A stretch of 20,000 bases of DNA, taken from IMG/VR virus record IMGVR_UViG_3300043399_001317. One strand, written 5' to 3'. Shown here in pieces: positions 1 through 14,816 of this stretch. Position 1 is the stretch's first letter, and each line of letters begins with the position of its first letter. The notes beneath the pieces are model-generated. The model worked only from the letters and a program-made list of their open reading frames with translations. It was not told the DNA's origin and did not search any database. Both the position numbers and the translations under genes were made by a program. The DNA comes from an uncultured virus (IMG/VR IMGVR_UViG_3300043399_001317) (lineage: Duplodnaviria; Heunggongvirae; Uroviricota; Caudoviricetes).

Positions 1-22
1 GAAACTTAACATCGTCTTTCAT
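1..22 (-). CDS. 5' end of a gene running off the window (MKDDVKF...)
   Basis: ATG at 22-20 on the minus strand, preceded by an A-rich leader and a TATCTTTG box at 42-49, like the other array genes. Confidence 0.55.
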
Positions 23-70
23 AATGCTTTTTTTATTAACACAAAGATACAAACTAATTTCCAAATAAAC

Positions 71-109
71 AAAAAAAGGGGCAACTTTTTTTGTCGCCCC
101 TTCTTTTTT
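71..109 (-). terminator. Family B intrinsic terminator (GGGGCGAC-A7-GTTGCCCC-Tn)
   Basis: Hairpin with a G.U pair on the minus strand followed by a T-tract, just after the stop at 113; related copies at 5010-5050 and 5484-5520. Confidence 0.75.
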
Positions 110-112
110 TAC

Positions 113-526
113 TTACTTGAGTTTGAACTCCCCGACCTCGAAAAGTTCCCTTTTAACCTCATCAGAGGCCAAAAGAAGGCTTTTAATGGGAAACTCAATG
201 ATTCGGTGGCTGTCGTTCGGGATATTGTCGGTAGAAATAGGTTTCCCAACCGTATCAATGAAATCTTGGGCGAAAACAAAGTCATCCAAGGATACATGCC
301 ATGTATCCAGACGGAAGGTCATTGTTTGGTCGGTATTAAAGGGCATGGCATTTACCAAATCCTTTAAGATTTCACGGGGCATTTCAAGTCCAATTTCCCA
401 TTGCTCAAGATTGGACTTCAAGCCAATATCTTCACCTTTAAGGTGTTTCCCATTAGCTTCAAGCCAATCTTGGGTAGCATCGCCCAGCCATTCCCAAAGA
501 ACCAAAAGTTTGATTTTGTTGTTCAT
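113..526 (-). CDS. hypothetical protein (137 aa, MNNKIKLL...)
   Basis: Start moved from 547 to the ATG at 526 because 545-552 is the promoter -7 box. Confidence 0.8.
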   Translation of the reverse strand: MNNKIKLLVLWEWLGDATQDWLEANGKHLKGEDIGLKSNLEQWEIGLEMPREILKDLVNAMPFNTDQTMTFRLDTWHVSLDDFVFAQDFIDTVGKPISTDNIPNDSHRIIEFPIKSLLLASDEVKRELFEVGEFKLK

Positions 527-581
527 ATGTCTTTTTTTATGGTACAAAGATAAAGAATAAATTTGAATTCCGCAATAGACT

Positions 582-866
582 CTATGTATTTTTTTCCCAA
601 ACCTTCAGGCCGTCCTTATGTTTGTAGTGTTCGTCAAAGTCTCTATGCACAGTGAAACTGATACCATTCACTTGAATGGTTACTGATTTTGCAACCACCG
701 AGTAATACCAACACCCCTCATCGCAACCACAGCCACAATCCCTTTTAATGTTGTACCTGTCTACTACCTTACCTTTCAGGGAACGGGCAGCCCTCGCAGT
801 GGCCTTTGTCCAAGACAGGCCAAGCTCTAAACCCTCGATGATTTTGTTTCGCAGCATTTCTGTCAT
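582..866 (-). CDS. hypothetical protein with CGCGCDEGC cysteine cluster
   Basis: 94 aa ORF with its own promoter at 895-925. Confidence 0.78.
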   Translation of the reverse strand: MTEMLRNKIIEGLELGLSWTKATARAARSLKGKVVDRYNIKRDCGCGCDEGCWYYSVVAKSVTIQVNGISFTVHRDFDEHYKHKDGLKVWEKNT

Positions 867-943
867 GGCTTTTATTTTTGGTTATTTAATAGGACAAAGA
901 TAAAAGTTATTTTTGAATTATGCAATAGCCACATAAAATTTAA

Positions 944-987
944 CAAAAAAAATCCCTCATACCTTATTCAGATGTGAGGGAATTTTT
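944..987 (-). terminator. Family A repeat copy 1 (hairpin CCCTCACATCT-GAATA-AGGTATGAGGG + T-tract)
   Basis: Immediately after the stop at 989 and fused to the next promoter. Confidence 0.85.
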
Positions 988-988
988 A

Positions 989-1600
989 TCACAAAAACTT
1001 TTTGAGTTCGTCAATAAAAGACAAAAGGTCATGTTTGTTTTCCGGGTTCAACAAATAAACGGGCACATTCACACCCATTATATTTGCGAATTCCGGCAAC
1101 ATTAGGTTGTACACCCTTCTATCAGGTTTTTGCAGAAAGAAATGGATAGCCTCAGCCACATGTTCAACCTTAACCCTATCCGATTTATCAAGTTGCGCAA
1201 CTGTTTTAGAGACAACTATGATTTTTTGCAAAGTTGTCTCAGATAAAGACATCCTTCTTTGAGCCGTTTTTAAAAGCATCTCAGAAGTTTGGTCTATCTC
1301 GCAATCAACAACCTCGAAATCTTTTGCGGCCTCAACCCTTTTTTTGGACTCATCCAAATTGAAGACAGGTATTCCGTTTACCCTATCTAAAGGGTATAAT
1401 TCAACGGTCAACCCGTCTTCTGCGGATAAAATATCTTCACCCATTTCTGGGAGGATTATAGCTTTGAAGTCCTCGAACATTGGTTCAAAGGACATTGGAA
1501 CTATTTTGTAACCCCCCAAAAGCGCAATCTCATACGCCCTTTGAAGGTTAACCCACGCGCCCGTGTATTGCACGGTCTTTATTTTCTTTTTCTTTGCCAT
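989..1600 (-). CDS. degenerate ComM/YifB (Mg-chelatase-like AAA+) related protein lacking Walker motifs (203 aa)
   Basis: QRAYEIALLGGY resembles ComM KRALEIAAAGGH; MSLSETTLQKIIVVSKTVAQLDKSDRVKVEHVAEAIHF resembles the C-terminal LSARxxxRILKVARTIADL...HxAEAIxY; no GxxGxGKT; start corrected to 1600. Confidence 0.65.
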   Translation of the reverse strand: MAKKKKIKTVQYTGAWVNLQRAYEIALLGGYKIVPMSFEPMFEDFKAIILPEMGEDILSAEDGLTVELYPLDRVNGIPVFNLDESKKRVEAAKDFEVVDCEIDQTSEMLLKTAQRRMSLSETTLQKIIVVSKTVAQLDKSDRVKVEHVAEAIHFFLQKPDRRVYNLMLPEFANIMGVNVPVYLLNPENKHDLLSFIDELKKFL

Positions 1601-1678
1601 AGCAATTTTTTTTGGTTGTTTAATGATACAAAGATAGGTTTTATTTTTGAAATAAACAATATCCAGATAAAACTTTAA

Positions 1679-1723
1679 CAAAAAAATTCCCTCATACCTT
1701 ATTCAGATGTGAGGGAATTTTTT
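1679..1723 (-). terminator. Family A repeat copy 2
   Basis: Hairpin identical to copy 1. Confidence 0.85.
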
Positions 1724-1737
1724 GTGGTGAGGTGTTA

Positions 1738-2418
1738 CTATTCTACCTTATTGGTTTTCACCCCGGTAAGGTTTGCCCCAGTTATGTTGACCCCGGTCAG
1801 TTTCGCCCCGGTCAGGTCGGCCTCGGTTAGGTCTGCATCGCTTAGGTTGACACTATTTAGGGTGGCACTATTTAGGTTGGTACCGATAAGGTTCGCCCCT
1901 CTCATGCAAGCACCATTCAGGTTTGCCCCGGTCAGGTCGGCCTTACCAAGTTCAACCTCTACCATATTTGCACCAGCCATATTTGCTTGTCTCATATCAG
2001 AACAACTCAAGTTTGCCCCAGCCATATTAACACCGATTAAGTTCGCCCCGCTCAAGTCGGCATTGTAAAGGTGAGCGCCCCTCAAGTTTGTCCAGATAAG
2101 TTTTGCGTCGCTCAGGTTCGCAAACACTAAACAAGCATCGCTAAGGTCTGCTCCGCTCAGGTTTGCATTGTATAGAGACGCTTTGCTAAAATTAACCCCT
2201 TTCAAGTTCGCCCCGCTCAAGTTGGCATTGTACAGGTAAACCCCAGTCAGGTCGGCCCCAGTCAGGTCAGCCCCAGTCAGGTCAGACTCGCGTAGGTTTG
2301 CGTAACTAAGGTTCGCCCCGGCTAGATTTACCCCGGTCAGTTTTAACCGGTATAAATTAGCTCCTTTAAAATCCCGCTCCCCGGCGGCGTAGCGTTCTAA
2401 AAGTTTTTCCGCTGTCAT
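1738..2418 (-). CDS. pentapeptide repeat protein (226 aa)
   Basis: Tandem A(N/D)LxG pentapeptides after MTAEKLLERYAAGERDF. Confidence 0.95.
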   Translation of the reverse strand: MTAEKLLERYAAGERDFKGANLYRLKLTGVNLAGANLSYANLRESDLTGADLTGADLTGVYLYNANLSGANLKGVNFSKASLYNANLSGADLSDACLVFANLSDAKLIWTNLRGAHLYNADLSGANLIGVNMAGANLSCSDMRQANMAGANMVEVELGKADLTGANLNGACMRGANLIGTNLNSATLNSVNLSDADLTEADLTGAKLTGVNITGANLTGVKTNKVE

Positions 2419-2494
2419 GTTTTTTTTATTTGTTATTTAATAGTACAAAGTTAAGGGTTATTTTTGAAATAAACAATAGGTAGATAAATTTTAA

Positions 2495-2538
2495 CAAAAA
2501 AAATCCCCCACAGCTTATCCAGATGTGAGGGAATTTTT
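2495..2538 (-). terminator. Family A repeat copy 3 (GGATA loop)
   Basis: Hairpin plus T-tract; 2458-2532 is near-identical to 3437-3512. Confidence 0.85.
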
Positions 2539-2739
2539 TTAGTCTGCCCAACCCCGGGTATAACGCTTTACCCCGGTAGGAATGGGGTATTCAGGGTCTT
2601 TTTTAAAGTTAGCCCTCCATTGACGCCATGCTTCTCTGGTAGCACGGTTGGCAGAAGTCTTGTATGGTTTGCGGATACCAGCCCGCTTGGGCAGTAAGTG
2701 ATGCCCTTTCTCCTTTAATGCTTCAGGTTTTGCAGCCAT
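2539..2739 (-). CDS. small basic hypothetical protein (66 aa)
   Basis: K/R-rich ORF, second gene of a two-gene unit ending at repeat copy 3. Confidence 0.7.
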   Translation of the reverse strand: MAAKPEALKEKGHHLLPKRAGIRKPYKTSANRATREAWRQWRANFKKDPEYPIPTGVKRYTRGWAD

Positions 2740-2751
2740 TTTATATACAAT

Positions 2752-3012
2752 TTAGCAGTTACAATCCATACATACAACCCGGTAACGGTCTTCACCAGTT
2801 ACCAAATCGTAGTGTTCAATAAGCACTTTAAAGCGCATGATTTTACAGACGCTTTTGAGTACTGCCATTTCTGTTTTACGGTCGCCCCTTTCGCCAGCGT
2901 GTTTGACTTCACCCAGCATTGAACGCCTTTGCTGAGGGGTGAAACTTTCTCGGTATTCGGTTATGATTTCCCGTACCAAAGCCCCGGCGCAGTGTGAGTA
3001 GAATTTTGTCAT
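2752..3012 (-). CDS. hypothetical protein (86 aa, C-terminal CxxCxC)
   Basis: ORF with promoter box at 3035-3042. Confidence 0.75.
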   Translation of the reverse strand: MTKFYSHCAGALVREIITEYRESFTPQQRRSMLGEVKHAGERGDRKTEMAVLKSVCKIMRFKVLIEHYDLVTGEDRYRVVCMDCNC

Positions 3013-3066
3013 AGCTATTATTTTTTTAACACCACAAAGATATGAAATAAATATGAAACGACCAAA

Positions 3067-3408
3067 TTAATTTACCGAAATGTCAAGAAAAGGTGAATAA
3101 TTTTCGCCTTTCCAAGTTACGGTCAACACCCCTTTGCTGGTCGAAATTTCCATTTCGGCGGAACAATCGGGAAAGTTAGAAAATTCAATCCCTTCCAAAT
3201 TTGCCCCGACAATTTGAGTGTTGCCATCTGTTATCTCCGAGTCATAATTGGAGTCAAATACAAAAATTTCCTTTCCGTTTGAAAGCTCCAAAAAATAACC
3301 CGACGAACATTTAATCTCACAATAGGTTGTTTTAGCTGTCAATATTTGAAAGCCAACGCAACCCATAATGGACTGGTCTATCTCTTTTGTTTCATATGGA
3401 TATTGCAT
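3067..3408 (-). CDS. acidic hypothetical protein (113 aa)
   Basis: ORF with promoter box at 3425-3432. Confidence 0.78.
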   Translation of the reverse strand: MQYPYETKEIDQSIMGCVGFQILTAKTTYCEIKCSSGYFLELSNGKEIFVFDSNYDSEITDGNTQIVGANLEGIEFSNFPDCSAEMEISTSKGVLTVTWKGENYSPFLDISVN

Positions 3409-3473
3409 TTTTATGTATTTTTAACAAAGGTAGGTTTTATTTTTGAAATAAACAATAGGTAGATAAATTTTAA

Positions 3474-3518
3474 CAAAAAAAAATCCCCCACAGCTTATCC
3501 AGATGTGAGGGATTTTTT
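3474..3518 (-). terminator. Family A repeat copy 4 (GGATA loop)
   Basis: Hairpin plus T-tract after the pentapeptide gene stop. Confidence 0.85.
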
Positions 3519-3534
3519 GGGTAGTGAGGCTTTA

Positions 3535-4086
3535 CTATTCTACCTTATTGGTTTTCACCCCGGTAAGGTTTGCCCCAGTTATGTTGACCCCGGTCAGTTT
3601 CGCCCCGGTCAGGTCGGCCTCGGTTAGGTCCGCATAGCTTAGGTTGGTTCCGTTTAATGTTGTGTTACTTAGGTTCGCCCCTTTCAGGTTTGCACCATTC
3701 AGGTTTGCACCATTCAGGTTTGCACCGCTAAGGTTTGTATCATGAAGGTCGGTATTGGTCAGGTTTGCCCCGGCTAGGTTTGCCTCTATCATATTAGAAC
3801 AACTTGTATTAGCAAAAGTCATATTTACACCGATTAGGTTTGCTTCAACCAAATTGGTACTATAGAGGCTAGCACCGCTCAGGTTTACCCAGATAAGTTT
3901 TGCCTTGTTCAGGTTTGAAAAGTTGAGGTTTGCATCGGTCAGGTTGGCACCGCTTAGGCTGGCCCCACTCAGGTTTATTTCGCTTAGGTTTACCCCGCTT
4001 AGGTTGGCCCCAGTAAGGTCAGCACCCGAAAAATCCCGCTCTCCGTATGCATAGCTTTCCAATAACAATAATTCTTCTGCTGTCAT
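3535..4086 (-). CDS. pentapeptide repeat protein (183 aa)
   Basis: ANLSG-type repeats; 3532-3630 is identical to 1735-1833. Confidence 0.95.
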   Translation of the reverse strand: MTAEELLLLESYAYGERDFSGADLTGANLSGVNLSEINLSGASLSGANLTDANLNFSNLNKAKLIWVNLSGASLYSTNLVEANLIGVNMTFANTSCSNMIEANLAGANLTNTDLHDTNLSGANLNGANLNGANLKGANLSNTTLNGTNLSYADLTEADLTGAKLTGVNITGANLTGVKTNKVE

Positions 4087-4125
4087 TTGTTTTTATTTTA
4101 TTGATACAAAGATAAAAGTTATTTT

Positions 4126-4485
4126 TCAATTTAGCAACCATTTGGCCGAAAAATTTTCAAGCCATTGGATATAATCCATAACAAAACTTTCAGCGTCCTT
4201 TTTCTCAAGCACCTTTACAAGGTTTTCATACGCTGTTTTTATGTCAACCGGGGTTCCTGATTCATCGGTTAAAACGACATACACAATATCGTCATTCATC
4301 AGGATACCGACGATGTTTTGAATTGTAACAAAGTCAGAACCCTTTTCCATAAGGTTTCTGTGGTCGGTATAGTCAAAAAACCCTTTGGATTCCAAACACT
4401 CCCTGAAATGGTTTAGAACGGTTAACCATTCCTCCATTCCTTTGATGTTTAAATACCGCTTCTGGATATACTCTTCCCAGTTCAT
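4126..4485 (-). CDS. hypothetical protein (119 aa)
   Basis: Start overlaps the upstream stop by 4 nt (ATGA), consistent with translational coupling. Confidence 0.8.
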   Translation of the reverse strand: MNWEEYIQKRYLNIKGMEEWLTVLNHFRECLESKGFFDYTDHRNLMEKGSDFVTIQNIVGILMNDDIVYVVLTDESGTPVDIKTAYENLVKVLEKKDAESFVMDYIQWLENFSAKWLLN

Positions 4486-4961
4486 TTGTTTACTATTTTG
4501 CTTAGTTTGTCGATTATCGGTTTATAGAACCCTGATTCGTTTTCTGAAAACCCTTTTTCCATCCCTTCTTTTTCTTTTGTTTCCTCATCGGTTAACCCAG
4601 AACCAAATTCTTTGTCAACCAAATCGGAGAACCTGTCAACCCGCTGTTTTTGTTGCCACTTAACCGGGTTATTATGGAAAAGAATGATATCTTCTATTAT
4701 TTCCAATGATACCTTTTTGATTTTGTTAAGCCCATAATCTTGGGGTTTTTCGGTTGAATGTAGTTCTATTCCCATGTTGGTATACAGAACCACTTTATCA
4801 ACCCCTTTTATGCGGGCACTGAAAACCATTTCCCCCAAATCCTTCTTTGTAATCAGATAACTTCCATTATCCGATGTCAAACAAAAAAGGTCGGCTGTTT
4901 TTCCATCCCAGCCAATTTTGAAGGATATCCCGTTTTCGGTTATGTAATCAGAAAGTTTCAT
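4482..4961 (-). CDS. hypothetical protein (159 aa)
   Basis: ORF with promoter box at 4981-4988. Confidence 0.8.
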   Translation of the reverse strand: MKLSDYITENGISFKIGWDGKTADLFCLTSDNGSYLITKKDLGEMVFSARIKGVDKVVLYTNMGIELHSTEKPQDYGLNKIKKVSLEIIEDIILFHNNPVKWQQKQRVDRFSDLVDKEFGSGLTDEETKEKEGMEKGFSENESGFYKPIIDKLSKIVNK

Positions 4962-5009
4962 ATCTTTTTTTTTGATAAGTCAAAGATACAAACTATTTTT
5001 GACATAAAC

Positions 5010-5050
5010 AAAAAAGGGGGCAACTTTTTTTGTTGCACCCCTTAAAAAAA
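5010..5050 (-). terminator. Family B terminator copy 2
   Basis: GGGGTGCAAC-A7-GTTGCCCCC-Tn on the minus strand; T-tract abuts the -33 box of the next promoter. Confidence 0.75.
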
Positions 5051-5070
5051 TATTGTTAACCAAAAATATA

Positions 5071-5433
5071 TCATTCCCCCATTGCTTGTTTTATTGCTTT
5101 GGGGTTTGTTTCAATTAGTTCGTCAATTGCCTCCGCCAGAACATCAAAGTATAGGTTTTCAACCCTACATTTGACCGTGTAATCCTCATTTAAGAGCGTT
5201 ACGTCAAAGAGGTCCAATGAATTAAGGGTAATCAAAACCCAGAACTGGTGATAGCGCCCATTAGCTTTGAAGCCAAAGGCTAAATCTTTGAAGTTTGAAA
5301 AGTTTGTTCCGCCCCAAGAGAAGAACATGGTAATATTAACCTTCAGATATGCGAAGGTTTCTTTTACATTTTGCTCCCTCGGTTTGAGGTCTTCAATTAA
5401 TTTAAAGACTTTTAGTGCGTTTTCTTTGTGCAT
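5071..5433 (-). CDS. hypothetical protein (120 aa), probably a conserved Bacteroidota phage/mobile-element family
   Basis: SWG...FKANGRYHxxWVxITLNxxDLFDV...LYFDxLxExIDxLIE pattern recalled from such elements, not verified; promoter at 5455. Confidence 0.75.
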   Translation of the reverse strand: MHKENALKVFKLIEDLKPREQNVKETFAYLKVNITMFFSWGGTNFSNFKDLAFGFKANGRYHQFWVLITLNSLDLFDVTLLNEDYTVKCRVENLYFDVLAEAIDELIETNPKAIKQAMGE

Positions 5434-5483
5434 CGTTTTTTATTTTTGTTAATACAAAGATACAAAATATTTTTGATATAAAC

Positions 5484-5520
5484 AAAAAAGGGGGCAACTT
5501 TTTTGCTGTCCCCCTAAAAA
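5484..5520 (-). terminator. Family B terminator copy 3
   Basis: GGGGGACAGC-A6-GTTGCCCCC-Tn; flanks shared with copy 2. Confidence 0.72.
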
Positions 5521-5543
5521 ATATTGTTAATCCTTAATCGATA

Positions 5544-5984
5544 TTACCATTTTACGACCGCACCTTTAGGTAGCTGGTCAATTGTTAATTTTTTAGGTAC
5601 ACAATCTTCGGCGTGCATACGTGCCTGACGCGCCATTTGAAGCGTGGGAATCTCTATACCCCTAAATTCTGTGCAAGAGTCACCCAATGGCTCAGGTGTT
5701 TCGCCGATAAAAGTAAAATGGGGTTTAAACAAATAGCTGACCGCTGGCTCCCATTTGCTTTTGGCGGCTATTCTAAACCATGCCTCATCATCTGGTCGCC
5801 CCAAAAGATTAGGTGCCACACATTTAAAATTGCGCCACTTGGTGACGCTTATTTTTTTGAAACTAAATCCCTCTGACTGGTCTCTAAAACGACCCCCGCC
5901 CACATAACCCTTTGCCTCTTCTTCTGTCCATTCAGAGGGAAAAGATACAACAAACTCAATCGCTTCAAAAGTTATGTGGCTCAT
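5544..5984 (-). CDS. hypothetical protein (146 aa, MSHITFE...)
   Basis: Start corrected to 5984, downstream of the promoter box at 6011-6018. Confidence 0.78.
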   Translation of the reverse strand: MSHITFEAIEFVVSFPSEWTEEEAKGYVGGGRFRDQSEGFSFKKISVTKWRNFKCVAPNLLGRPDDEAWFRIAAKSKWEPAVSYLFKPHFTFIGETPEPLGDSCTEFRGIEIPTLQMARQARMHAEDCVPKKLTIDQLPKGAVVKW

Positions 5985-6060
5985 GATTTTTTTTTTGATT
6001 AACAATAATACAAATATAAGGTTTATTTTTGAAACAAACAATACCCCACATAAAATTTAA

Positions 6061-6107
6061 CAAAAAAAAAATCCTTCATACCTTATTCAGATATGAGGGA
6101 ATTTTTT
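6061..6107 (-). terminator. Family A repeat copy 5
   Basis: Hairpin has a compensatory U-A pair where copies 8-13 have C-G. Confidence 0.82.
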
Positions 6108-6129
6108 GAAAGGGTTATGTTAACTCAAA

Positions 6130-6810
6130 TTACAAAGAAAGGTCCAAGTACGAATAAACCGTTTCGTTTTCGATGTTCAAAGGCATGGTATAAACCAATG
6201 CGTTTTCTGTGTGGAGACAAAAGCCCATGTAGTCTGGACCTTTGTATAGGCTTAAATTTATTTCACCTTCGCCGGCCTGTAGGATAAACCTAAACGCATC
6301 TGCTAACAACATAGGGTTAAAACAAGCTATAGAAGTTCCAAACGTCAAACGTACCGCAACCGGGGAACCCTCTTTTTTCTGATAATTTTCGCCCTTTTGA
6401 CATAATTGATACAGAGCCTTAACCTCCTTATCAGAAAGCGTTTTAACATGTTGCGTTTTTTCAGGTTCTGGTATCACTACCTGAAAATTAGGCATCATGT
6501 ATTCTTTTTCTGGTCGGTGTACAGTTTGGTTTCTATGTTCTTTTTCGGCGTATTGGGCGGGAAAAACATTTCCCTGTAAATCCATATGTGTAATTTGGCT
6601 ACTATCCGACTTCAAACGGAGTATCATAGAAAAGTCTGTGCCGTAAATAAAGCCTTCACGTTGTACAATTAGGCGTTTTTCCTTAGCGTGCCAAGAGTCA
6701 GTAGAACCTGTACGCATTACAACGCGCTTCATTAGCTTTAGCGGGTCTTTTTCCTTTTCAGGGTTGGGCAAATCGTTTAATTTTTCAATTTGTTTTGTGA
6801 TGTTTTTCAT
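6130..6810 (-). CDS. truncated DNA polymerase III beta-clamp (DnaN)-like protein (226 aa)
   Basis: Collinear motifs: YGTDFSMILRL ~ VATDGHRLA, MPNFQVVIP ~ YPDYRRVIP, CFNPMLLADAF ~ GFNxxYxLDxL, VYTMPL ~ YVVMPM. Confidence 0.55.
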   Translation of the reverse strand: MKNITKQIEKLNDLPNPEKEKDPLKLMKRVVMRTGSTDSWHAKEKRLIVQREGFIYGTDFSMILRLKSDSSQITHMDLQGNVFPAQYAEKEHRNQTVHRPEKEYMMPNFQVVIPEPEKTQHVKTLSDKEVKALYQLCQKGENYQKKEGSPVAVRLTFGTSIACFNPMLLADAFRFILQAGEGEINLSLYKGPDYMGFCLHTENALVYTMPLNIENETVYSYLDLSL

Positions 6811-6943
6811 ACCTTTATTTTTTTTTGATTAACAATAAGACAAATTTACAAAAGATATTTCAAACATGCAATACCCAATGCAAAATTTTTTTTTGAGCCA
6901 TTTTAAGGCGTTTTAACGGGGTTTTTTTTAGAGGGAAAGGAAA

Positions 6944-6977
6944 GCCCCACAATAAATGGAATCTTTTATTGTGGGGC
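6944..6977 (-). terminator. 13-bp perfect hairpin downstream of the ArdC-like gene
   Basis: GCCCCACAATAAA-8 nt-TTTATTGTGGGGC, 11 nt after the stop; weak T-tract. Confidence 0.65.
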
Positions 6978-6988
6978 AAATATATAGC

Positions 6989-7864
6989 CTATTCTTTTAC
7001 TCCTAATATGTGGTTTACGGCCTTTTGTGCGGCGGCTGCTGCCTTAATTACAAAGGACGTATCGTTTTTGAGCGGTTTGAGCCAACCAGCCATATAAGCC
7101 GCTGAATTTTCCTCAAGTTCGTTTGATATGTTCAGGTGTGAACAAAGGAATGCCGCGCCAAGTTCGGCAACAAGTTCCTCAAATGAATAGCGCTCAGTGC
7201 CAAACATATCAAAATTTGCCACACCTTCACGGTTTAAACGATTAGGGTGTCCGGTGCTGTGTATTAACTCATGGCACATCGTTTCCGCATGGCTTTCTTT
7301 GGATTTCATATTGTCAACCAAAGGAACGTTTACAACGTCTTTAGAAGGTATATAATAAGCTCCCGTTTGGTCGTTTGATACAATTTGCGGCGGGTTCTTA
7401 TACCCCTCTATAATTTCCTGAAGCCCCTCAACGCCTTTGCCTTCATTCGTTGGGATTTGGTAGTCAATACCCGTCGTGTCTTCTAATGAAAAAACATGGT
7501 ATTGTTTGTATAAGAAGTATTTGGAAACTTCAAGATTATTTTTAAGGGCTTCTAAATATGCCTCTAATGTTACTGTTTTATTTCCCTGTTTGTAAATCAT
7601 GGAACCCAATACAATAACATTGCCTTTAGTTCCTTTTTTTACGGCACCGCCAGCAGCTTTTATTTGGTTAAAGGTACCCCACAAAGGGAGTTTGCCGCTA
7701 TGGTTCAAAAGAAGGTAGTTAATCCCGCTGTAAGCCCGTTTGCTCACAAAATTGCGGGCTATCCCGTTTTCAGTATATGGGCTTTCCCAAGAGCCCATTT
7801 TCCCTGATTCAATGGATTCTATAATCCGCTCAGTAATGGCGGCATAAATGTCTTTGTTGTTCAT
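6989..7864 (-). CDS. ardC: ArdC-family antirestriction / ssDNA-binding protein with zincin-like metallopeptidase domain (291 aa)
   Basis: N-domain IYAAITERII..W..P...N.VSKRAYSGIN..LL, W.TFNQI...GG.VKKG.KG; C-domain HELIHSTGH..RLNR...YSFEELVAELGAAFLC, SAAYMAGWL; start corrected to 7864. Confidence 0.9.
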   Translation of the reverse strand: MNNKDIYAAITERIIESIESGKMGSWESPYTENGIARNFVSKRAYSGINYLLLNHSGKLPLWGTFNQIKAAGGAVKKGTKGNVIVLGSMIYKQGNKTVTLEAYLEALKNNLEVSKYFLYKQYHVFSLEDTTGIDYQIPTNEGKGVEGLQEIIEGYKNPPQIVSNDQTGAYYIPSKDVVNVPLVDNMKSKESHAETMCHELIHSTGHPNRLNREGVANFDMFGTERYSFEELVAELGAAFLCSHLNISNELEENSAAYMAGWLKPLKNDTSFVIKAAAAAQKAVNHILGVKE

Positions 7865-7942
7865 TTTATTCTTTTTTTGATTAACAATAAGACAAAGATA
7901 TAAAATAACTTTGAAATAAACAATACCCCACATAAATTTTAA

Positions 7943-7988
7943 CAAAAAAAATTCCCTCAAACCTTATTCAGATATGAGGGAAATTTTT
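7943..7988 (-). terminator. Family A repeat copy 6
   Basis: Hairpin plus T-tract fused to the ardC promoter. Confidence 0.82.
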
Positions 7989-8026
7989 GTAGTGACGGTA
8001 TTACCATCAGGTTATCAAGTACTCCA

Positions 8027-8407
8027 TTATTTTATATCTGTAACCAATTTAACAAAACTCACAGCCTCTGAGTAATATCCGTTAGATTCGCCATACCAGC
8101 GAATTGTAACATAGCCATTTATTGTTGCAAACTTGTAGAAAGTCCAAGTTTCTGAACCATAATCAGTTTCACCACTATTTGTGGACTCTTCGGCATTTAA
8201 TATTGGAACGCCAACCAAGTCATTCAAATCCCCTTCAATGTCTTCTATGCTAACCACTTCGCAGCAGTCCTGTTCGTGGTACATTTCATATACCTCATCT
8301 TGGGATTCAAAGACTATTTTGTTTTTTAAGCTATATTCGCTTTCAACCGAAATTTTGGTTAAAGTCTTTCCGATTAAATCGGAAACAGGCGTTTCTAATC
8401 TTTTCAT
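8027..8407 (-). CDS. conserved phage protein (126 aa; possibly DUF7448)
   Basis: MYHEQDCCE.V.IEDI.GDL.DL.G.PIL.AEE...TWTFYK.ATI.GYVTIRWYGESNGYYSE is a recurring phage family motif (family name from memory); start corrected to 8407. Confidence 0.8.
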   Translation of the reverse strand: MKRLETPVSDLIGKTLTKISVESEYSLKNKIVFESQDEVYEMYHEQDCCEVVSIEDIEGDLNDLVGVPILNAEESTNSGETDYGSETWTFYKFATINGYVTIRWYGESNGYYSEAVSFVKLVTDIK

Positions 8408-8499
8408 ATTTGTTTTTATTTTATTGATACAAAGATATAAAATAAATTTGAAACAAACAAGCATTCAGATAAAAATATTTTTCCCCATGCCATAAAAAT

Positions 8500-8534
8500 A
8501 AAAAACCCATACCTTATTCAGATATGGGTTTTTT
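8500..8534 (-). terminator. Family A repeat copy 7 (shortened stem, CCCATATCT-GAATA-AGGTATGGG)
   Basis: Symmetric shortening keeps a fully paired stem and T-tract. Confidence 0.75.
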
Positions 8535-8549
8535 CTCTTAATGATTCTA

Positions 8550-8648
8550 CTATCCTTTAAAGATAAAATAAAGAACCAATAAGAAGAGGGATATATAAGC
8601 AATACCCCAAAATACGATTAAAGGCCAGTACGGATTTTCTTTTTTCAT
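8550..8648 (-). CDS. small single-pass membrane peptide (32 aa, MKKENPYWPLIVFWGIAYISLFLLVLYFIFKG)
   Basis: Translated by hand (below the ORF-track cutoff); A-rich leader; fills the gap between the upstream stop and terminator copy 7. Confidence 0.65.
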   Translation of the reverse strand: MKKENPYWPLIVFWGIAYISLFLLVLYFIFKG

Positions 8649-8660
8649 ATGTATTTTTTT

Positions 8661-8897
8661 TTAATTCCAGCAGTCAATTTTGTACTTATCCAAATAGGGT
8701 TTTTTTGCGCCGTTTGGGTGCCTGTATAACTCCCAGCGGGATAGATATAAGCCCTTATCAATAAGTTTAAAGGTTTCTTTTTTCGCCCTTTCCTTAAATT
8801 CTTTTTCCTTTTTGGGTGTATAGAGGGCTTGTACTTTCAAACCCATTTTTTCCCCGGTTTCGCCCTCGGTGACGAAATAAAGACTTAGAATTTCCAT
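8661..8897 (-). CDS. basic hypothetical protein (78 aa, MEILSLY...)
   Basis: Start corrected to 8897; variant promoter box TATCTTCG at 8929-8936. Confidence 0.72.
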   Translation of the reverse strand: MEILSLYFVTEGETGEKMGLKVQALYTPKKEKEFKERAKKETFKLIDKGLYLSRWELYRHPNGAKKPYLDKYKIDCWN

Positions 8898-8969
8898 AAA
8901 GTTGTTTTTATAAGGGTTAATAATCTGGCGAAGATACAAAGTTTTTTTTAATTATCCAAATTATTTAAT

Positions 8970-9013
8970 AAAAAAAATTCCCCCACACCTTTTCAGATGT
9001 GAGGGAATTTTTT
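8970..9013 (-). terminator. Family A repeat copy 8 (CCCTCACATCT-GAAA-AGGTGTGGGGG)
   Basis: 11-bp stem with two G.U pairs, GNRA tetraloop and T-tract. Confidence 0.88.
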
Positions 9014-9027
9014 GTGGTGAGGGGTGG

Positions 9028-10014
9028 TTAGAATAACCCATTTAAGAAAGCGAAAGGGCTTTCAGGGTCGGGGTTTTCTTTTTCCCTTACTTCGCCTTTT
9101 ACCCATTTTCCGTTTTGTAATATAAAACCCCTAGTTTCTAGGGAGTCTTCACCGCCGTATGGGTCGTACTCGGGTAGTTCTACTATTTCGGCGTTGGCCG
9201 GAACCATTAGACGCCATATTTTGCCGCCGCCCCTGTGCCCCGAGTAGCTTTCATGCGAAATTACCTGAACTAAATCAGGTATGTTTTCGCCTTCAAAGAG
9301 TATTCCGTTAACCAGAAGCCTGTTATAACCTTTGCGGCTAACAATTATATGTTCGTTATACTCCAATTTTATGAATTGGTAGTTAACCCGCTCTTCCATT
9401 TCCGCAATTTCGTCTAGATTCCTGAGATACTCTTCATACCGCACCCATGTATTAGGTAGTCGGTCTTTACAAAATATCTCTAATGCAGAGTTTTGGACGC
9501 CATAAACGCCCAAAGATTCTGCTATCTTTTTTAAAGATGTTACGTCGTTCACATAACGACCGCTATTCCAGTCCTGCATTAGCGCAGAACTTTTCACGCC
9601 CGCAGCAAGGCGTATAGAATAGGTCGTGTTCGACCACTTCCCGTTCTTCGAATAGTCCTTACTTTCGACCACACAAACCCCGGGAATGTTAGACCCGGTA
9701 AACTCGAATATATGATTTTTAACATAAAGCAAAAGCATCGGATACCTAGAACGGTGTCCCATGCCATCATTATACGATATTACCCCCTCATTCACATCGG
9801 GGAAAGGGTATAGTTCCGACGGAACGTCCGGAACGTGGTTGACTTGGACGTCCCAATACCCGTCCCTTACTTTGCATTTGTAATATTTGAAGTCTAAGAC
9901 TTCGAAGTTTTCAATTTTCCGGTCTTCTTTAACCGGGAAGCGGGAAGTTTTACCCGCAAATTCAACGACCAAAACTTGGCCGCATTCGTTTTTTTCTAAT
10001 GATAGATTCACCAT
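9028..10014 (-). CDS. hypothetical protein (328 aa, MVNLSLEK...)
   Basis: Start corrected to 10014; promoter at 10046-10076. Confidence 0.82.
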   Translation of the reverse strand: MVNLSLEKNECGQVLVVEFAGKTSRFPVKEDRKIENFEVLDFKYYKCKVRDGYWDVQVNHVPDVPSELYPFPDVNEGVISYNDGMGHRSRYPMLLLYVKNHIFEFTGSNIPGVCVVESKDYSKNGKWSNTTYSIRLAAGVKSSALMQDWNSGRYVNDVTSLKKIAESLGVYGVQNSALEIFCKDRLPNTWVRYEEYLRNLDEIAEMEERVNYQFIKLEYNEHIIVSRKGYNRLLVNGILFEGENIPDLVQVISHESYSGHRGGGKIWRLMVPANAEIVELPEYDPYGGEDSLETRGFILQNGKWVKGEVREKENPDPESPFAFLNGLF

Positions 10015-10095
10015 TTCAGTATTTTTTTTTCGATTAACAATAAGACAAATATACAAAGGATATTTGAATAATGCAATACCCCACATAAAATTTAA

Positions 10096-10158
10096 CAAAA
10101 AAAAATCCCCCACACCTTTTCAGATGTGAGGGATTTTTTTGACCGAAGGGGGGGGGGG
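10096..10158 (-). terminator. Family A repeat copy 9 with a C11 tract after the stop codon
   Basis: GAAA-loop hairpin; G11 at 10148-10158 on the plus strand. Confidence 0.88.
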
Positions 10159-10482
10159 TTAAACTCCAAGAGACTTGCACCCCAGAATTTTCCCTTCGCC
10201 GTCCCGCACGACCTCAGCGGGAACAAGGAGGTCGGCGCGTTGGGGTAGGGCAGTCTTCACAATTTGGGAAACGATTAAGAACGTCCCCTCTTGGGGTTCG
10301 GGCAGCCCCTCCGGTTCCCCGAAGACCGTTTTTGTGACGGGCACCCCGTCCACATCAAACCCCGCACTTTCGGTCGTCGCCTTCAGGCGAACAAGACCCT
10401 CGGGGTTAAACACTTTTACCGTTTCCCCTTCAACGTTCACCACCGTAATGGGGTGGGGTGTAAAGTTTTTTACTTCTGCCAT
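10159..10482 (-). CDS. conserved phage hypothetical protein (107 aa, NxTPH...LPEP...IVS...R.DLL.P...VRD..G.I.GC family)
   Basis: Motif pattern recalled from phage proteins of unknown function; promoter at 10534. Confidence 0.85.
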   Translation of the reverse strand: MAEVKNFTPHPITVVNVEGETVKVFNPEGLVRLKATTESAGFDVDGVPVTKTVFGEPEGLPEPQEGTFLIVSQIVKTALPQRADLLVPAEVVRDGEGKILGCKSLGV

Positions 10483-10603
10483 TTTAGAAAAGTTTTCCCC
10501 TGACCAGCGGGGCGCTGTTTTTTTTTAACACTACAAAGATAAAGAACATTTTTTAATTGTGCAATATCTTTGCAGCATTTTTTTTATTTTTTTTTGTCCC
10601 GCC

Positions 10604-10915
10604 TTATTCGGGGGGGTTTGAAGGTTCATCAAATTCCCGCTTTTCTATCTTGCGACCGCCGGGAACGGTCAAGCGGATAATTTCCCCCCTGATTGTAGGG
10701 GGTACCCAGCCGCCCGCAAAGAAATATTCACTAACCAGCGCCGTGACGTTGGTCAATGATATATCCCTTTTTCTGATTAGAAAAGAACCGCAGGAAAGTT
10801 CTATTTTAACTAGACGGAATCCGTCCGCCCATTTCAGGGCGGCATATGCAAACAGCAAGTTTGCAACTGTTTCAAGGCCGTTGGAGATCTCAAAGATAAT
10901 GTTTGCAATTTGCAT
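10604..10915 (-). CDS. hypothetical protein (103 aa)
   Basis: ORF with promoter box at 10943-10950. Confidence 0.65.
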   Translation of the reverse strand: MQIANIIFEISNGLETVANLLFAYAALKWADGFRLVKIELSCGSFLIRKRDISLTNVTALVSEYFFAGGWVPPTIRGEIIRLTVPGGRKIEKREFDEPSNPPE

Positions 10916-10992
10916 ATTTTCCTATTTTGATTAACAATAAAACAAAGATATAGTTTATTTTTGAAATAAACAATACCCCACATAAAATTTAA

Positions 10993-11056
10993 CAAAAAAA
11001 AATCCCCCACACCTTTGCAAGATGTGAGGGATTTTTTTGCGGTTGAGGGGGGGGGG
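10993..11056 (-). terminator. Family A repeat copy 10 (TGCAA loop) with a C10 tract
   Basis: Hairpin plus T-tract; G10 at 11047-11056. Confidence 0.88.
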
Positions 11057-11305
11057 TTATTCTAAAGTGTCCCCCAAAAACTGAATTGCCGCCTTATCTG
11101 ACATGTCGTCCCCCCATTTTGCCCGGGCACAATAAAGTTGGTCCCAGTCTTGAACCTTCCCTTCGCCATTCGAAGGGAAGGCCATAACCTCATCCCCGTG
11201 GTCAAAAGTGTTTGACCGCGATATTATCACGAATCTCCCATCCGAGAGTTGGTACTCTCGGGCATTTCCTCGTAACAGTCCTTCAGAAATTAACTTCGCT
11301 GCCAT
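11057..11305 (-). CDS. hypothetical protein (82 aa)
   Basis: ORF bounded by repeat copies 10 and 11. Confidence 0.8.
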   Translation of the reverse strand: MAAKLISEGLLRGNAREYQLSDGRFVIISRSNTFDHGDEVMAFPSNGEGKVQDWDQLYCARAKWGDDMSDKAAIQFLGDTLE

Positions 11306-11384
11306 GTCTTTATTTTTTGGTTGTTAACAATACACAAATATACAAAGGATATTTGAATAATGCAATACCCAATGTAAAATTTAA

Positions 11385-11446
11385 CAAAAAAAAATCCCCC
11401 ACACCTTTTCAGATGTGAGGGCTTTTTTTGTAGTGAGGGGGGGGGG
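11385..11446 (-). terminator. Family A repeat copy 11 with a C10 tract
   Basis: GAAA-loop hairpin; G10 at 11437-11446. Confidence 0.88.
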
Positions 11447-12139
11447 TTATTCTAAACCCAAAACCCCCCACAGGTTTGCCCCGGTCAAGTTTGCCCCGGT
11501 CAGGTTTGCATATGTCAAATTTGCCTCATAGAGGTTTGCTCCAGTCAGGTTTGCCCCTTGAAGCTTTGAATTGGACAACTCAACCCGAAACAGGTTTGTC
11601 CCACCAAGATTGACCCCTTGCAGGTCAGCCCCGCTCAGGTCGGTTTTGCTCAGGTTTGCTTCGCGCAGGTTTGCCCCGTTCAGGTTGACCCCTCGCAGGT
11701 CAGCCCCGCTCAGGTCAGCCCAGCGGAAGTCGGCCTCGCTCAGGTTTTTTTCATTCACCCCACCGAAGCGCAGGAGTGCCCCCCTAAGAATTGTTCCTCT
11801 TAGTCTGGCATAGGTCATACTTACAGCGCTAAGCCTGACCGTACTAAGGTCAGCCCCGCTCAGGTTGACCCCTTGCAGGTTTGCCCCGCTTAGGTTGGCC
11901 TTCCAAAAATTGACCCCTCGCAGGTCAGCCCCGCTCAGGTTGGCTCCGCTCAGGTCAGCCCCGCTCAGGTCGGCTTCGCGCAGGTTTGCCCCGCTCAGGT
12001 TGACCCCGCTCAGGTTGGCGTCCACAAGTACCGCCCCAGAACGGGGGACGCCGGGTATTACAAAGCCGCCGGATAGGTCGGCCCCTCTAAAATCCCGCTC
12101 TCCGGCTGCATAGCGTTCCAATAATTCTTGTGCAGTCAT
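11447..12139 (-). CDS. pentapeptide repeat protein (230 aa)
   Basis: MTAQELLERYAAGERDF followed by ADLSG/ANLxG repeats; start corrected to 12139. Confidence 0.95.
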   Translation of the reverse strand: MTAQELLERYAAGERDFRGADLSGGFVIPGVPRSGAVLVDANLSGVNLSGANLREADLSGADLSGANLSGADLRGVNFWKANLSGANLQGVNLSGADLSTVRLSAVSMTYARLRGTILRGALLRFGGVNEKNLSEADFRWADLSGADLRGVNLNGANLREANLSKTDLSGADLQGVNLGGTNLFRVELSNSKLQGANLTGANLYEANLTYANLTGANLTGANLWGVLGLE

Positions 12140-12219
12140 CGTATTTTTTTTTTGGTTGTTAACAATACACAAATATACAAAGGATTTTCCAAATATGCAA
12201 TAACCTTTTAAAAATTTAA

Positions 12220-12290
12220 CAAAAAAAAATCCCCCACACCTTTTCAGATGTGAGGGAAATTTTTGCGGTTGAGATGGGGGGGGGGGGGGG
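12220..12290 (-). terminator. Family A repeat copy 12 with a C15 tract
   Basis: GAAA-loop hairpin; G15 at 12276-12290. Confidence 0.88.
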
Positions 12291-12303
12291 TGGAGCGGTC
12301 GGG

Positions 12304-12537
12304 TCAGCACATGTGGCGCGACCAATCCCGGTCGCGCTTGTCATGCCATGATAGGTTTTCACCTCTTGATTGACCCCATTCGATTGCCCACTCCTTCCAG
12401 ACGTCTTCGGCGATTTCGTCGCCGATTTGGATGTTTTTGTCAACGGCCATCGCCATGCCGTTAGATAAGATTGCAACGTTTTTGGGGTTACTGTTTGCCG
12501 TATTGTCTACTGCAAACTCTTTTACAGTTACTGTCAT
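12304..12537 (-). CDS. hypothetical protein (77 aa, MTVTVKEF...)
   Basis: Start corrected to 12537; promoter at 12569-12599. Confidence 0.78.
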   Translation of the reverse strand: MTVTVKEFAVDNTANSNPKNVAILSNGMAMAVDKNIQIGDEIAEDVWKEWAIEWGQSRGENLSWHDKRDRDWSRHMC

Positions 12538-12618
12538 TTCAGTATTTTTTTTTCGATTAACAATAAGACAAATATACAAAGGATAATTGAATAATGCAAT
12601 ACCCTTTTAAAAATTTAA

Positions 12619-12680
12619 CAAAAAAAAATCCCCCACACCTTTTCAGATGTGAGGGCTTTTTTTGTTGTGAGGGGGGGGGG
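12619..12680 (-). terminator. Family A repeat copy 13 with a C10 tract
   Basis: GAAA-loop hairpin; G10 at 12671-12680 abutting the stop. Confidence 0.88.
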
Positions 12681-13187
12681 CTATTCTATTTCGTATTTTA
12701 CCCCCCGGATTGTTATAAATTTGACATTACTAATTTTTATGTCCTGTTGAAGGACAAGATTTTTAGGATAGTCGCCCGAATCCGACGGGCGCTTATATTG
12801 TTTGTATATGGCTTCTGAATTTTCAGAGCCGTTAGAGTTAGAGGTAAATGTTTGCGAGCGCACACTATTTTTTAGACGGCGAACCGTCATATAATAGTTT
12901 CCATTATGTTCAACTAGGGAGTTGGAAAGGCGGGTTCCCCAAGTCCGCTCCATAACTTCAAATGTCGTTGTCAAATCTTTGCGCTTTTTGAGCGCGTTTT
13001 GAATGCCTTTTTTATATGAGGAACCAATAAGAAAAACACTCTTTTCAGTCTTTTGGATTACCTCTAAGGGGCAATCCTTTTGAAGGTGTTTCCCCCTTCT
13101 GTATTCCGTCGTATATTCGACGGAAACAAAAGTCGGGGTGTTAATAGCCCAAAGAAGTTGGGCAATTGTCTCGATGTTGGTTTTCAT
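12681..13187 (-). CDS. phage hypothetical protein (168 aa, MKTNIET...), first gene of the array
   Basis: Start corrected to 13187; promoter box TAAATTTG at 13215-13222. Confidence 0.8.
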   Translation of the reverse strand: MKTNIETIAQLLWAINTPTFVSVEYTTEYRRGKHLQKDCPLEVIQKTEKSVFLIGSSYKKGIQNALKKRKDLTTTFEVMERTWGTRLSNSLVEHNGNYYMTVRRLKNSVRSQTFTSNSNGSENSEAIYKQYKRPSDSGDYPKNLVLQQDIKISNVKFITIRGVKYEIE

Positions 13188-13316
13188 TTGTCTTTGCTTT
13201 TGATTAACAATACCCAAATTTACAACGTTTCCAGTTAACAAACAAATTTTTATTCAATTATTTTCAAATTATTTTTAACCCCAGTTATATAACAAAAATA
13301 TAAATGTGTTAAAGTT

Positions 13317-13347
13317 TTGCATGTAAGAAAAAGTATTTGTATATTTG
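13317..13347 (+). promoter_or_regulatory. Bacteroidota-type promoter facing right into the non-coding region
   Basis: TTG (13317-13319), 20 nt spacer, TATATTTG (13340-13347). Confidence 0.7.
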
Positions 13348-13785: not shown

Positions 13786-13846
13786 GTGAATAAGGCTTTA
13801 TTTTTTGGGGTTGTATTGATAATGTAAATTTTAAAACATTATCAAT

Positions 13847-14803: not shown

Positions 14804-14816
14804 GGTTATTGTAAGT

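Follow-up and report, generated by a model that had tools for sequence, protein, structure and literature searches.

The minus strand of positions 1 to 13250 of IMGVR_UViG_3300043399_001317, a 20,000-nt stretch of DNA from an uncultured virus that is referred to here, at its full length, as the window, carries a one-direction row of small genes separated by copies of a repeated module of approximately 110 nt, in which a predicted terminator is followed by a predicted promoter. Comparison of the window with related metagenome contigs showed that gene content varies cassette by cassette, and that a genome lacking a cassette keeps one chimeric module in its place. With a probability of roughly 80%, the array is a plastic accessory-gene block of the kind associated with the promoter-early stem-loops (PeSLs) of T4-type phages, shuffled by homologous recombination between terminator-promoter modules. 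PeSLs have been described in phi1/RB49, PST/T4 and nt-1/KVP40 (Arbiol et al. 2010, PMC2839356; Comeau et al. 2014, PMC4122927). A first-pass annotation, made from the letters of the window, had compared the modules to these composite terminator and promoter units, and all of the PeSL features that can be tested in a sequence were found in the array.

The array contains 23 complete open reading frames (ORFs) of 66 to 328 codons, named w01 to w20 and, for three pentapeptide-repeat proteins (PRPs), PRP230, PRP183 and PRP226. It also includes a 32-codon ORF (8648-8550) and, at 21-1, an ORF truncated where the window ends, a recount that takes the place of the 24 genes given earlier. Since the next gene starts at 21-1, the array extends beyond the left edge of the window. 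At the other end, the first start codon (13187) adjoins 650 nt of non-coding DNA, in which G/C-rich tracts and 72-nt tandem repeats occur, and the genes beyond it point the other way, on the plus strand.

Anatomy and copies of the module

Nearly all intergenic regions longer than approximately 100 nt share one plan. Read on the sense strand from stop codon to ATG, it begins with a C10-C15 tract (in five cases), a C/A-rich TCACNAC sequence, an A-run, an 11-bp hairpin and a T-run of 7-11, and continues with GTTAAA, a spacer of 16-17 nt, TTG, 20 nt, TAnnTTTG and an A-rich leader of 16-31 nt before the ATG. Twelve full copies of this module, termed type A, are located between array genes in the window. 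A pattern for the hairpin and T-run gave 12 matches, all on the minus strand from 946 to 12655, and 0 matches in 200 dinucleotide shuffles. A covariance model was built from an alignment of 47 distinct copies and scored the 12 window copies, all within 886-12667, at 92-121 bits, the next best hits reaching 43 bits (6832-6933) and 39 bits (8421-8542). No full copy was found by the model in 13250-20000, where nothing reaches 87 bits. The earlier figure of 13 modules, two of them partial, is accordingly corrected by model and pattern to 12 full modules, the two partial ones being retained. The full copies, with their covariance-model scores, are as follows.

12538..12680, minus strand: type A module 1, between w01 and w02; C10 tract, TAtaTTTG box; 114.3 bits at 12560-12667
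12140..12303, minus strand: type A module 2, between w02 and PRP230; C15 tract; 107.5 bits at 12162-12268
11306..11446, minus strand: type A module 3, between PRP230 and w03; C10 tract; 113.5 bits
10916..11056, minus strand: type A module 4, between w03 and w04; C10 tract; 121.3 bits
10015..10158, minus strand: type A module 5, between w05 and w06; C11 tract; 118.8 bits
8898..9027, minus strand: type A module 6, between w06 and w07; short spacer, degenerate -7 box TAtcTTCG; 92.0 bits
7865..8026, minus strand: type A module 7, between w08 and w09; 108.6 bits
5985..6129, minus strand: type A module 8, between w10 and w11; the window copy with a U-A compensatory pair; 106.1 bits
3409..3534, minus strand: type A module 9, between PRP183 and w15; 105.6 bits
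2419..2538, minus strand: type A module 10, between w17 and PRP226; 107.5 bits
1601..1737, minus strand: type A module 11, between PRP226 and w18; 112.2 bits
867..988, minus strand: type A module 12, between w18 and w19; 111.5 bits

A repeat search returned families of 8-11 copies, 65-146 nt long and 60-100% identical. The modules lie in direct orientation, 0.4-2.6 kb apart, and are 65-100% identical over 95-146 nt; modules 1 and 5 share 92% identity over 146 nt, leader included. The distance from GTT to the -33 TTG, described earlier as a near-fixed 16-17 nt, has this length in 11 of the 12 window copies and is 7 nt in one; of the 47 copies, 39 have 16-17 nt here and eight have 6-8 nt. The GTTAAA box itself is nearly invariant across the 47 copies and is without an obvious terminator or promoter role.

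The modules at the array's promoter-proximal end are distinguished by a tract of C7-C15 directly 3' of the stop codon, with five examples in the window (12671-12680, 12276-12290, 11437-11446, 11047-11056 and 10148-10158). Its length differs between orthologous sites, being 10/10/8 at w01, 15/10 at w02, 10/11 at w03 and 11/8 at w05. The stretch 3' of the C tract is a repeat of the hairpin's left arm (CCCTCACA) and so could compete with that arm for the right one.

Two further intergenic regions carry partial modules. The first-pass annotation had overlooked a second family, type B, in which a GGGGNGCAAC/GTTGCCCC hairpin is combined with a promoter of the same kind in three copies. Four short intergenic regions carry the promoter motif only.

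6811..6988, minus strand: partial module, between w09 and w10; an unrelated 13-bp predicted hairpin terminator (6977-6944) and the promoter half of the module; 43.2 bits at 6832-6933
8408..8549, minus strand: partial module, between the 32-codon ORF and w08; variant hairpin with the same loop (8534-8500), TTG-N20-TAtcTTTG; 39.3 bits
5434..5543, minus strand: type B module, between w11 and w12; hairpin, T-run, promoter motif; 38.8 bits with the type A model
4962..5070, minus strand: type B module, between w12 and w13; 36.2 bits with the type A model
22..112, minus strand: type B module, between w20 and the next gene; 15-pair terminator-like hairpin at 107-71
10483..10603, minus strand: promoter-only gap, between w04 and w05; long structured leader; 35.0 bits
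4087..4125, minus strand: promoter-only gap, between w14 and PRP183; promoter motif
3013..3066, minus strand: promoter-only gap, between w15 and w16; promoter motif
527..581, minus strand: promoter-only gap, between w19 and w20; promoter motif

Predicted terminator and promoter

In the 47 aligned copies, 94.0% of 517 stem cells can pair, versus 36-65% when the 3' arm is slid, and seven of the 11 pairs are invariant. Two kinds of substitution had been offered earlier in favour of an RNA hairpin. The first, G.U pairing, is indeed common in the stem, with UG at pair 16-36 in 28 of 47 copies and at pair 21-31 in 34 of 47. The second, a compensatory change, does not hold up: the sole double change (C-G to U-A) is seen in two of 47 copies, a C.A mismatch stands at the same pair in 17 of 47, and the covariation score was 0.064 versus 0.066 for shuffles, 383 of 500 shuffles being as high. 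Since covariation was no higher than in shuffles, the hairpin draws no statistical support from it. The hairpin is supported by strand asymmetry: because of the G.U pairs, the sense-strand RNA hairpin is more stable than the antisense one in 47 of 47 copies (mean -13.9 vs -8.7 kcal/mol).

An intrinsic terminator consists of a hairpin stable in the sense RNA and a U-run just 3' of the stop codon. The modules show this arrangement, with a G+C-containing hairpin followed directly by a U-run downstream of the stop codon. A generic terminator scan, which finds perfect stems and misses mismatched ones, gave 33 sites versus 17.9 +/- 4.3 in shuffles.

The housekeeping promoter of Bacteroidota has a -33 TTG and a -7 TAnnTTTG at fixed spacing. 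Of 24 start codons, 21 have TAnnTTTG at most 120 nt upstream, in each of the 21 cases preceded by TTG at a distance of exactly 20 nt, and the motif lies 16-51 nt ahead of the ATG. With the degenerate box TAtcTTCG of w07 this makes 22 promoters, in agreement with both the number and the Bacteroidota type given by the first-pass annotation. The minus strand of 1-13250 contains 26 TAnnTTTG motifs, versus 4.8 +/- 2.2 (maximum 13) in 500 shuffles. The leaders are A-rich and have no Shine-Dalgarno sequence. A generic sigma-70 promoter scan was set aside as irrelevant to this promoter type. Judged by these motifs, the hairpin would terminate transcription and the box would initiate it.

Gene content and junctions in related contigs

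Relatives were obtained from metagenome contigs with the module pattern, which gave 17 loci from nine records, 78-97% identical to the window in blocks; they are cited below by handles such as C1 and L010. The same pattern gave no match in IMG/VR or in species genomes, and protein-based locus searches in IMG/VR with w06 and w09 gave no relative. Scanning with the covariance model, as had been suggested at the outset, found 40 further full copies in the nine contigs besides the 12 in the window. These 52 copies are distinct and all lie on the gene-sense strand; they were counted after dropping seven duplicate rows from overlapping loci, and the count leaves out 15 kb of the contig of L001.

For a gene-order map, ORFs were called on the window and the nine contigs and their 142 proteins were clustered. 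Unique shared genes are colinear in all contigs, and content varies cassette by cassette. C1 passes from w01 directly to w09, w02-w08 being missing; w10 is missing in L012, and one or two pentapeptide genes stand in its place in L010 and C1; L010 holds the additional genes x25, x26 and x05; and w18 is followed by four different genes across four contigs. Groups joined by a promoter-only gap or by an overlap stay together wherever they were seen (w13-w14-PRP, w15-w16-w17 and w04-w05), and w19-w20 are together in the window and in L017. In L014 (1229-1231, versus window 288-776), a 487-nt deletion runs from w19 to w20, with both ends inside ORFs, and is not bounded by modules. Contigs from independent samples agree with this: in run X5, one contig connects 9015 with 10045 and skips w06, whose depth is 0 in X5 and 0.73 in run X4, and a second X5 contig joins both type B modules across w12. 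Neither a fixed gene content nor breakpoints unrelated to the modules, the two outcomes named earlier as contrary to the proposal, were found in this comparison.

Chained blastn blocks between the window and seven relatives defined 28 junctions. At 21 of them, each of the four ends is either intergenic or no more than 15 nt from an ORF end. Four are inside pentapeptide genes (repeat-number changes and chimeras between paralogues) and three are inside other ORFs, at least one of which is an artefact of the start-codon call at w08/w09. Both window-side ends fall in the 'edge or intergenic' class, which makes up 27.6% of window bases, at 22 of the 28 junctions, for a nominal binomial p of 6e-20 that applies to junctions which are not independent and among which selection removes those in genes.

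The single modules left behind are more telling as to mechanism. Flanking homology blocks overlap by 2-156 nt in the cassette-lacking genome at 32 of 62 junctions, taken from 20 sequence pairs. In all six three-way-aligned indels, the single module corresponds to the upstream flanking module in its 5' part and to the downstream one in its 3' part, with one switch between them. The place of this switch varies, from the 5' flank to the hairpin (w06, x26), from the T-run to the promoter (x05) or within the shared promoter (the type B case). Such a pattern is the footprint of homologous exchange between direct repeats, as opposed to cleavage at one fixed site. Individual modules are also mosaic, the 47 copies representing 26 combinations of eight hairpin, 11 spacer and 11 promoter classes, and all four gametes are present at 793 of 1378 informative site pairs. 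Whole-ORF indels and replacements, junctions at ORF edges and chimeric single modules together bear out the earlier proposal that genes are gained and lost at modules.

The same cannot be said of the reordering of cassettes that was proposed with it. With unique genes colinear in all contigs, one cassette, PRP226, is out of place: in the window it is flanked by w17 and w18, and a 98%-identical protein is encoded after w14 in L012. The two copies are 94% identical at the DNA level, downstream module included, and the displacement could reflect the movement of a cassette or, alternatively, ectopic conversion between paralogues with ends in common. Cassette swaps among C1, L008 and L016 were also considered and rejected, as they are explicable by the presence or absence of pentapeptide paralogues, leaving only PRP226. 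Joints at which a contig 'goes back' were rejected as evidence of circles, such contigs being ambiguous at 88% likeness across repeats.

Proposed recombination between modules

We propose that nearly every gene, or group of two or three genes, would form an insulated transcription unit. After the stop codon, an intrinsic terminator, made of the A-run, an 11-bp hairpin stable only in the sense RNA and the T-run, would end transcription, and approximately 25 nt further on a host-type promoter (TTG-N20-TAnnTTTG) would serve the next gene through a 16-31 nt A-rich leader leading to its ATG. Ordinary homologous recombination between modules, within one genome or between co-infecting relatives, would delete, insert or replace the intervening ORFs, and the same recombination would homogenise the modules and make them mosaic. 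The array is probably an early block; its early timing, the pathway of recombination and the roles of the cassette proteins are what we infer from this arrangement.

Several points weigh against this explanation. A single family of records supplied all of the relatives, which are metagenome contigs, and Logan contigs are interrupted at repeats. Modules are not the sole substrate of recombination, since seven of the 28 junctions fall within ORFs, chiefly pentapeptide genes, and junctions at ORF edges are partly what selection leaves under any mechanism, the 28 not being independent events. The w06 protein is known from contigs as long as 77,965 nt, of which 20 kb are seen here, so that a dedicated recombinase may be encoded elsewhere. 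As for the modules, covariation in the hairpin is not significant, the stem has a C.A mismatch in 17 of 47 copies, and activity of promoter and terminator is predicted from their motifs.

Some of these points would also suit an explanation by regulation only, in which selection keeps alike the many copies of a single strong early promoter and terminator, genes come and go by illegitimate recombination or homing, and junctions within genes are lost. Nearly all of the intergenic DNA is module DNA, so that surviving intergenic junctions must fall in modules in any case; the seven junctions inside ORFs fit as well; and an HNH gene beyond the array (13847-14803), which is missing from contigs of two runs and has no module nearby, points to another route of gain and loss. 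Illegitimate events, however, would leave no clean chimeric modules, whereas the cassette-lacking genome keeps exactly one in six of six cases, homology overlaps of 2-156 nt occur at 32 of the 62 junctions, and mosaicism of the modules is extensive. Regulation only is an unlikely account.

A site-specific system was weighed next to homologous recombination, the first-pass annotation having described the array as integron-like but apparently integrase-free. In an integron attC site, a core GTTRRRY is paired to an inverse core RYYYAAC. The hairpin and GTTAAAT could be taken for a folded site of this kind, used by a recombinase encoded outside the window to mobilise single-gene circles: GTTAAA is nearly invariant in the 47 copies, GTTAAAT fits GTTRRRY, the A-run and T-run extend the palindrome, most cassettes have a single gene, and one pentapeptide cassette occupies two different slots. 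The 5' partner of the GTT box, however, is not conserved (alignment columns 1-4), crossover intervals differ between cases and are spread along the module (5' flank to hairpin, T-run to promoter, -7 region), type B modules and promoter-only regions host junctions too, and the cassettes bring their own promoters, unlike those of integrons. No integrase or other recombinase family was detected among 30 proteins of the window and 22 of relatives. As far as these proteins show, the array is apparently integrase-free; integron-like is a poor description of it, a system of this type being very unlikely here.

A more speculative and quite improbable idea is that the modules, through the invariant GTTAAA and the variable C7-C15 tract at the 3' edge of the cassette, are docking sites of a phage-encoded recombination function that would excise, capture and pass single-gene circles between co-infecting phages. 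The array would then be an analogue of an integron that carries promoters, needs no integrase and stocks counter-defence genes, with pentapeptide-repeat genes as the main cargo.

Genes of the array

The ORFs of the array, in minus-strand order, and three cassettes found in relatives are listed below.

12681..13187, minus strand: w01, 168 aa, first gene of the array; no family; x24 in its place in L010
12304..12537, minus strand: w02, 77 aa; no family; missing from L012 and C1
11447..12139, minus strand: PRP230, pentapeptide-repeat protein; PF00805, E 1e-71
11057..11305, minus strand: w03, 82 aa; no family
10604..10915, minus strand: w04, 103 aa; no family
10159..10482, minus strand: w05, 107 aa; phrog_30542 (unknown function), E 1e-22
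9028..10014, minus strand: w06, 328 aa; no family; single-gene cassette, missing in L010 and skipped by the X5 contig
8661..8897, minus strand: w07, 78 aa; no family over the cutoff
8550..8648, minus strand: 32-codon hydrophobic ORF 3' of w07, read from the ORF translations
8027..8407, minus strand: w08, 126 aa; DUF7448, E 6.4e-29; phrog_2650, E 1.7e-45
6989..7864, minus strand: w09, 291 aa; ArdC-N and zincin-like MPTase-PolyVal; phrog_7245 'anti-restriction', E 1.7e-68
6130..6810, minus strand: w10, 226 aa; no family; pentapeptide genes instead in L010 and C1, missing in L012
5544..5984, minus strand: w11, 146 aa; no family
5071..5433, minus strand: w12, 120 aa; no family; four ORFs in its place in C1
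4482..4961, minus strand: w13, 159 aa; no family
4126..4485, minus strand: w14, 119 aa; no family; overlaps the w13 stop; w13-w14-PRP kept together in four of four long sequences
3535..4086, minus strand: PRP183, pentapeptide-repeat protein, E 3.8e-48
3067..3408, minus strand: w15, 113 aa; no family
2752..3012, minus strand: w16, 86 aa; no family
2539..2739, minus strand: w17, 66 aa; no family
1738..2418, minus strand: PRP226, pentapeptide-repeat protein; 98% identical protein in a different slot of L012
989..1600, minus strand: w18, 203 aa; Mg_chelatase_C-like domain, E 5.1e-10
582..866, minus strand: w19, 94 aa; no family over the cutoff
113..526, minus strand: w20, 137 aa; no family
1..21, minus strand: start of the next gene; ORF cut by the window edge
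L001 14788-15120, minus strand: relative-only cassette, RadC-like JAB protein
L001 3790-4539, minus strand: relative-only cassette, DUF932 protein
L010 11428-11751, minus strand: relative-only cassette, 107-aa fragment resembling the C-terminus of RecE-type exonucleases

Sixteen of the 23 array proteins have neither a Pfam family over the cutoff nor a PHROG match. A search of the ESM Atlas with w06 gave no lead (best score 0.79; TM 0.33). The 32-codon ORF sits between w07 and the variant terminator, and its DNA is conserved in L010 and partly in C1. Together with ArdC, the RadC-like, DUF932 and RecE-like cassettes make up the usual gene set of the entry or leading regions of mobile elements.

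Pentapeptide-repeat genes are the commonest type of cassette, with three in the window and 32 among the 142 ORFs of the window and nine contigs. Their N- and C-terminal ends are conserved, the number of repeats is variable and chimeras occur between paralogues, making these genes a second substrate for recombination. The ArdC-like protein, the three pentapeptide-repeat proteins and the position of the array could point to the early host-takeover or anti-defence role put forward earlier; a literature search found no direct paper on phage pentapeptide-repeat proteins as anti-defence factors.

The G+C content is 36-58% in cassette ORFs, 30% in modules and 45% in a conserved 709-aa phage protein of a relative. 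A foreign origin of the cassettes, considered on the basis of G+C, was rejected, as this phage protein has 45% and the low-G+C right arm of the window is the odd part.

Carrier and host

The 709-aa protein is encoded downstream of the array in C1 and matches phrog_1735 (E 5e-186). Its best matches are in an uncultured 462-kb phage (46%) and in the Cellulophaga phages phi17:2 and phi4:1 (39-40%). The window has no near match among phage or plasmid records, plasmids having been searched by megablast. With the covariance model, the module was found neither in Cellulophaga phage phi17:2 (best 22 bits, E 0.69) nor in 42 kb of the uncultured phage LR756500.1, where only AT-rich short repeats were seen. 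No T4 core gene was seen among 52 proteins scanned, which cover the 20-kb window and 23 kb of a relative.

It would be possible to assign the array to a conjugative element or phage-plasmid, as its leading or accessory region, with the modules driving expression on entry. ArdC-N/MPTase in the array, RadC and DUF932 in relatives and ART-PolyVal on the right arm agree with this, as ArdC, RadC and DUF932 are typical of such regions, and a homologue of the 709-aa protein is found in 20 plasmid records. These 20, of which 19 are non-mobilizable, nevertheless stand against 496 phage records; there are several strong PHROG matches and no plasmid match by megablast; and no conjugation or relaxase family was seen among the 52 proteins. 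This alternative is highly improbable, and would alter the carrier and not the mechanism of the modules. The carrier is read as a large tailed phage on the strength of these protein matches. Because of the promoter grammar, the leaders without Shine-Dalgarno sequences and the link to Cellulophaga phages, its host probably belongs to the Bacteroidota. Runs that contain 22-40% of sampled words are freshwater, aquaculture and wastewater metagenomes from several studies; none of the runs listed as containing the stretch is recorded as RNA.

The non-coding region at 13360-13800, between the two divergent arms, has G/C-rich tracts at 13360-13470 and approximately five copies of a CCCCATCTATCATTAAAAATTTTTTGGGAAAATT-like unit inside 72-73-nt tandem repeats at 13524-13710. 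It is iteron-like and may be an origin or a regulatory region. The right arm (13847-20000, plus strand) has a G+C content of 28-37% and a third-position G+C content (GC3) of 19-36%, versus 36-58% G+C for array ORFs, and contains no module copies. The gene at 13847-14803 (plus strand) encodes a 318-aa HNH / endonuclease VII-like protein (phrog_1035, E 1.3e-13) with an internal array of 51-nt (17-aa) repeats, and resembles a homing-type endonuclease gene of the free-standing kind. In runs X4 and X5, contigs connect 13803 directly with 14750, indicating relatives that do not have the whole HNH gene; no module is nearby. A GNAT acetyltransferase fusion (15052-15894) is followed by three ART-PolyVal / DUF3990-like ADP-ribosyltransferase paralogues (16532-17098, 17295-18119 and 18103-18939), the last two of which share a 186-nt repeat at 80%.

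Comparison with known systems

Bacillus phage SPO1 has a host-takeover module of early genes with repeated strong early promoters. The array resembles it in having approximately two dozen small early-type genes in a row with many near-identical host-type promoters, and differs in that each promoter forms a single conserved module with a terminator and that recombination at the modules is seen by comparison.

With integrons, the array has in common its co-oriented, mostly single-gene units separated by a repeated hairpin element, with a content that varies between relatives. It differs from them in that no integrase is found among the 52 proteins scanned, the repeat has no paired R''/R' cores, each cassette has its own predicted promoter (a motif at 21 of 24 genes plus one degenerate box) and terminator, and crossovers are spread along the repeat.

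The likeness to PeSLs is closer. Both systems have a composite of host-type early promoter and stem-loop terminator, predicted from sequence in the array, that spans stop to start codon (PMC2839356), present in many copies in a plastic region of small genes that are mostly ORFans (here 16 of 23 without a family). In both, the motif borders the insertions, deletions and replacements that distinguish close relatives, a genome without a given gene retains one chimeric motif, and stems contain G-T pairs. The array belongs to a different phage lineage, however, with no T4 core gene seen and the nearest cultured link being to Cellulophaga phages at 39-40%. Its promoters are of the TTG/TAnnTTTG type with an A-rich leader, whereas those of T4-type phages have sigma-70 boxes and a Shine-Dalgarno sequence; it keeps one fixed order of terminator then promoter, in contrast to five positional subclasses; identity over approximately 100 nt is much higher; and it has a conserved GTTAAA box and, in a subset, the post-stop C7-C15 tract. 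Mini-circles and activity of promoters and terminators belong to the T4-type systems, whereas the array is known from its sequence.

Literature searches for PeSL, and for TAnnTTTG together with phage, found no PeSL-type shuffling outside T4-type phages. Natural variants from several samples document the gene swaps of the array, which supports the fusion of terminator and promoter in one repeated unit as a general, convergent design of large lytic phages, one that keeps a fast-turnover shelf of accessory genes, probably including counter-defence genes. The 52 modules also offer natural variants of a predicted promoter-terminator unit for Bacteroidota genetics. The array is the known PeSL design with unrelated sequence and another promoter grammar, in a large freshwater phage, and as such is a clean case of that design and not a new principle.

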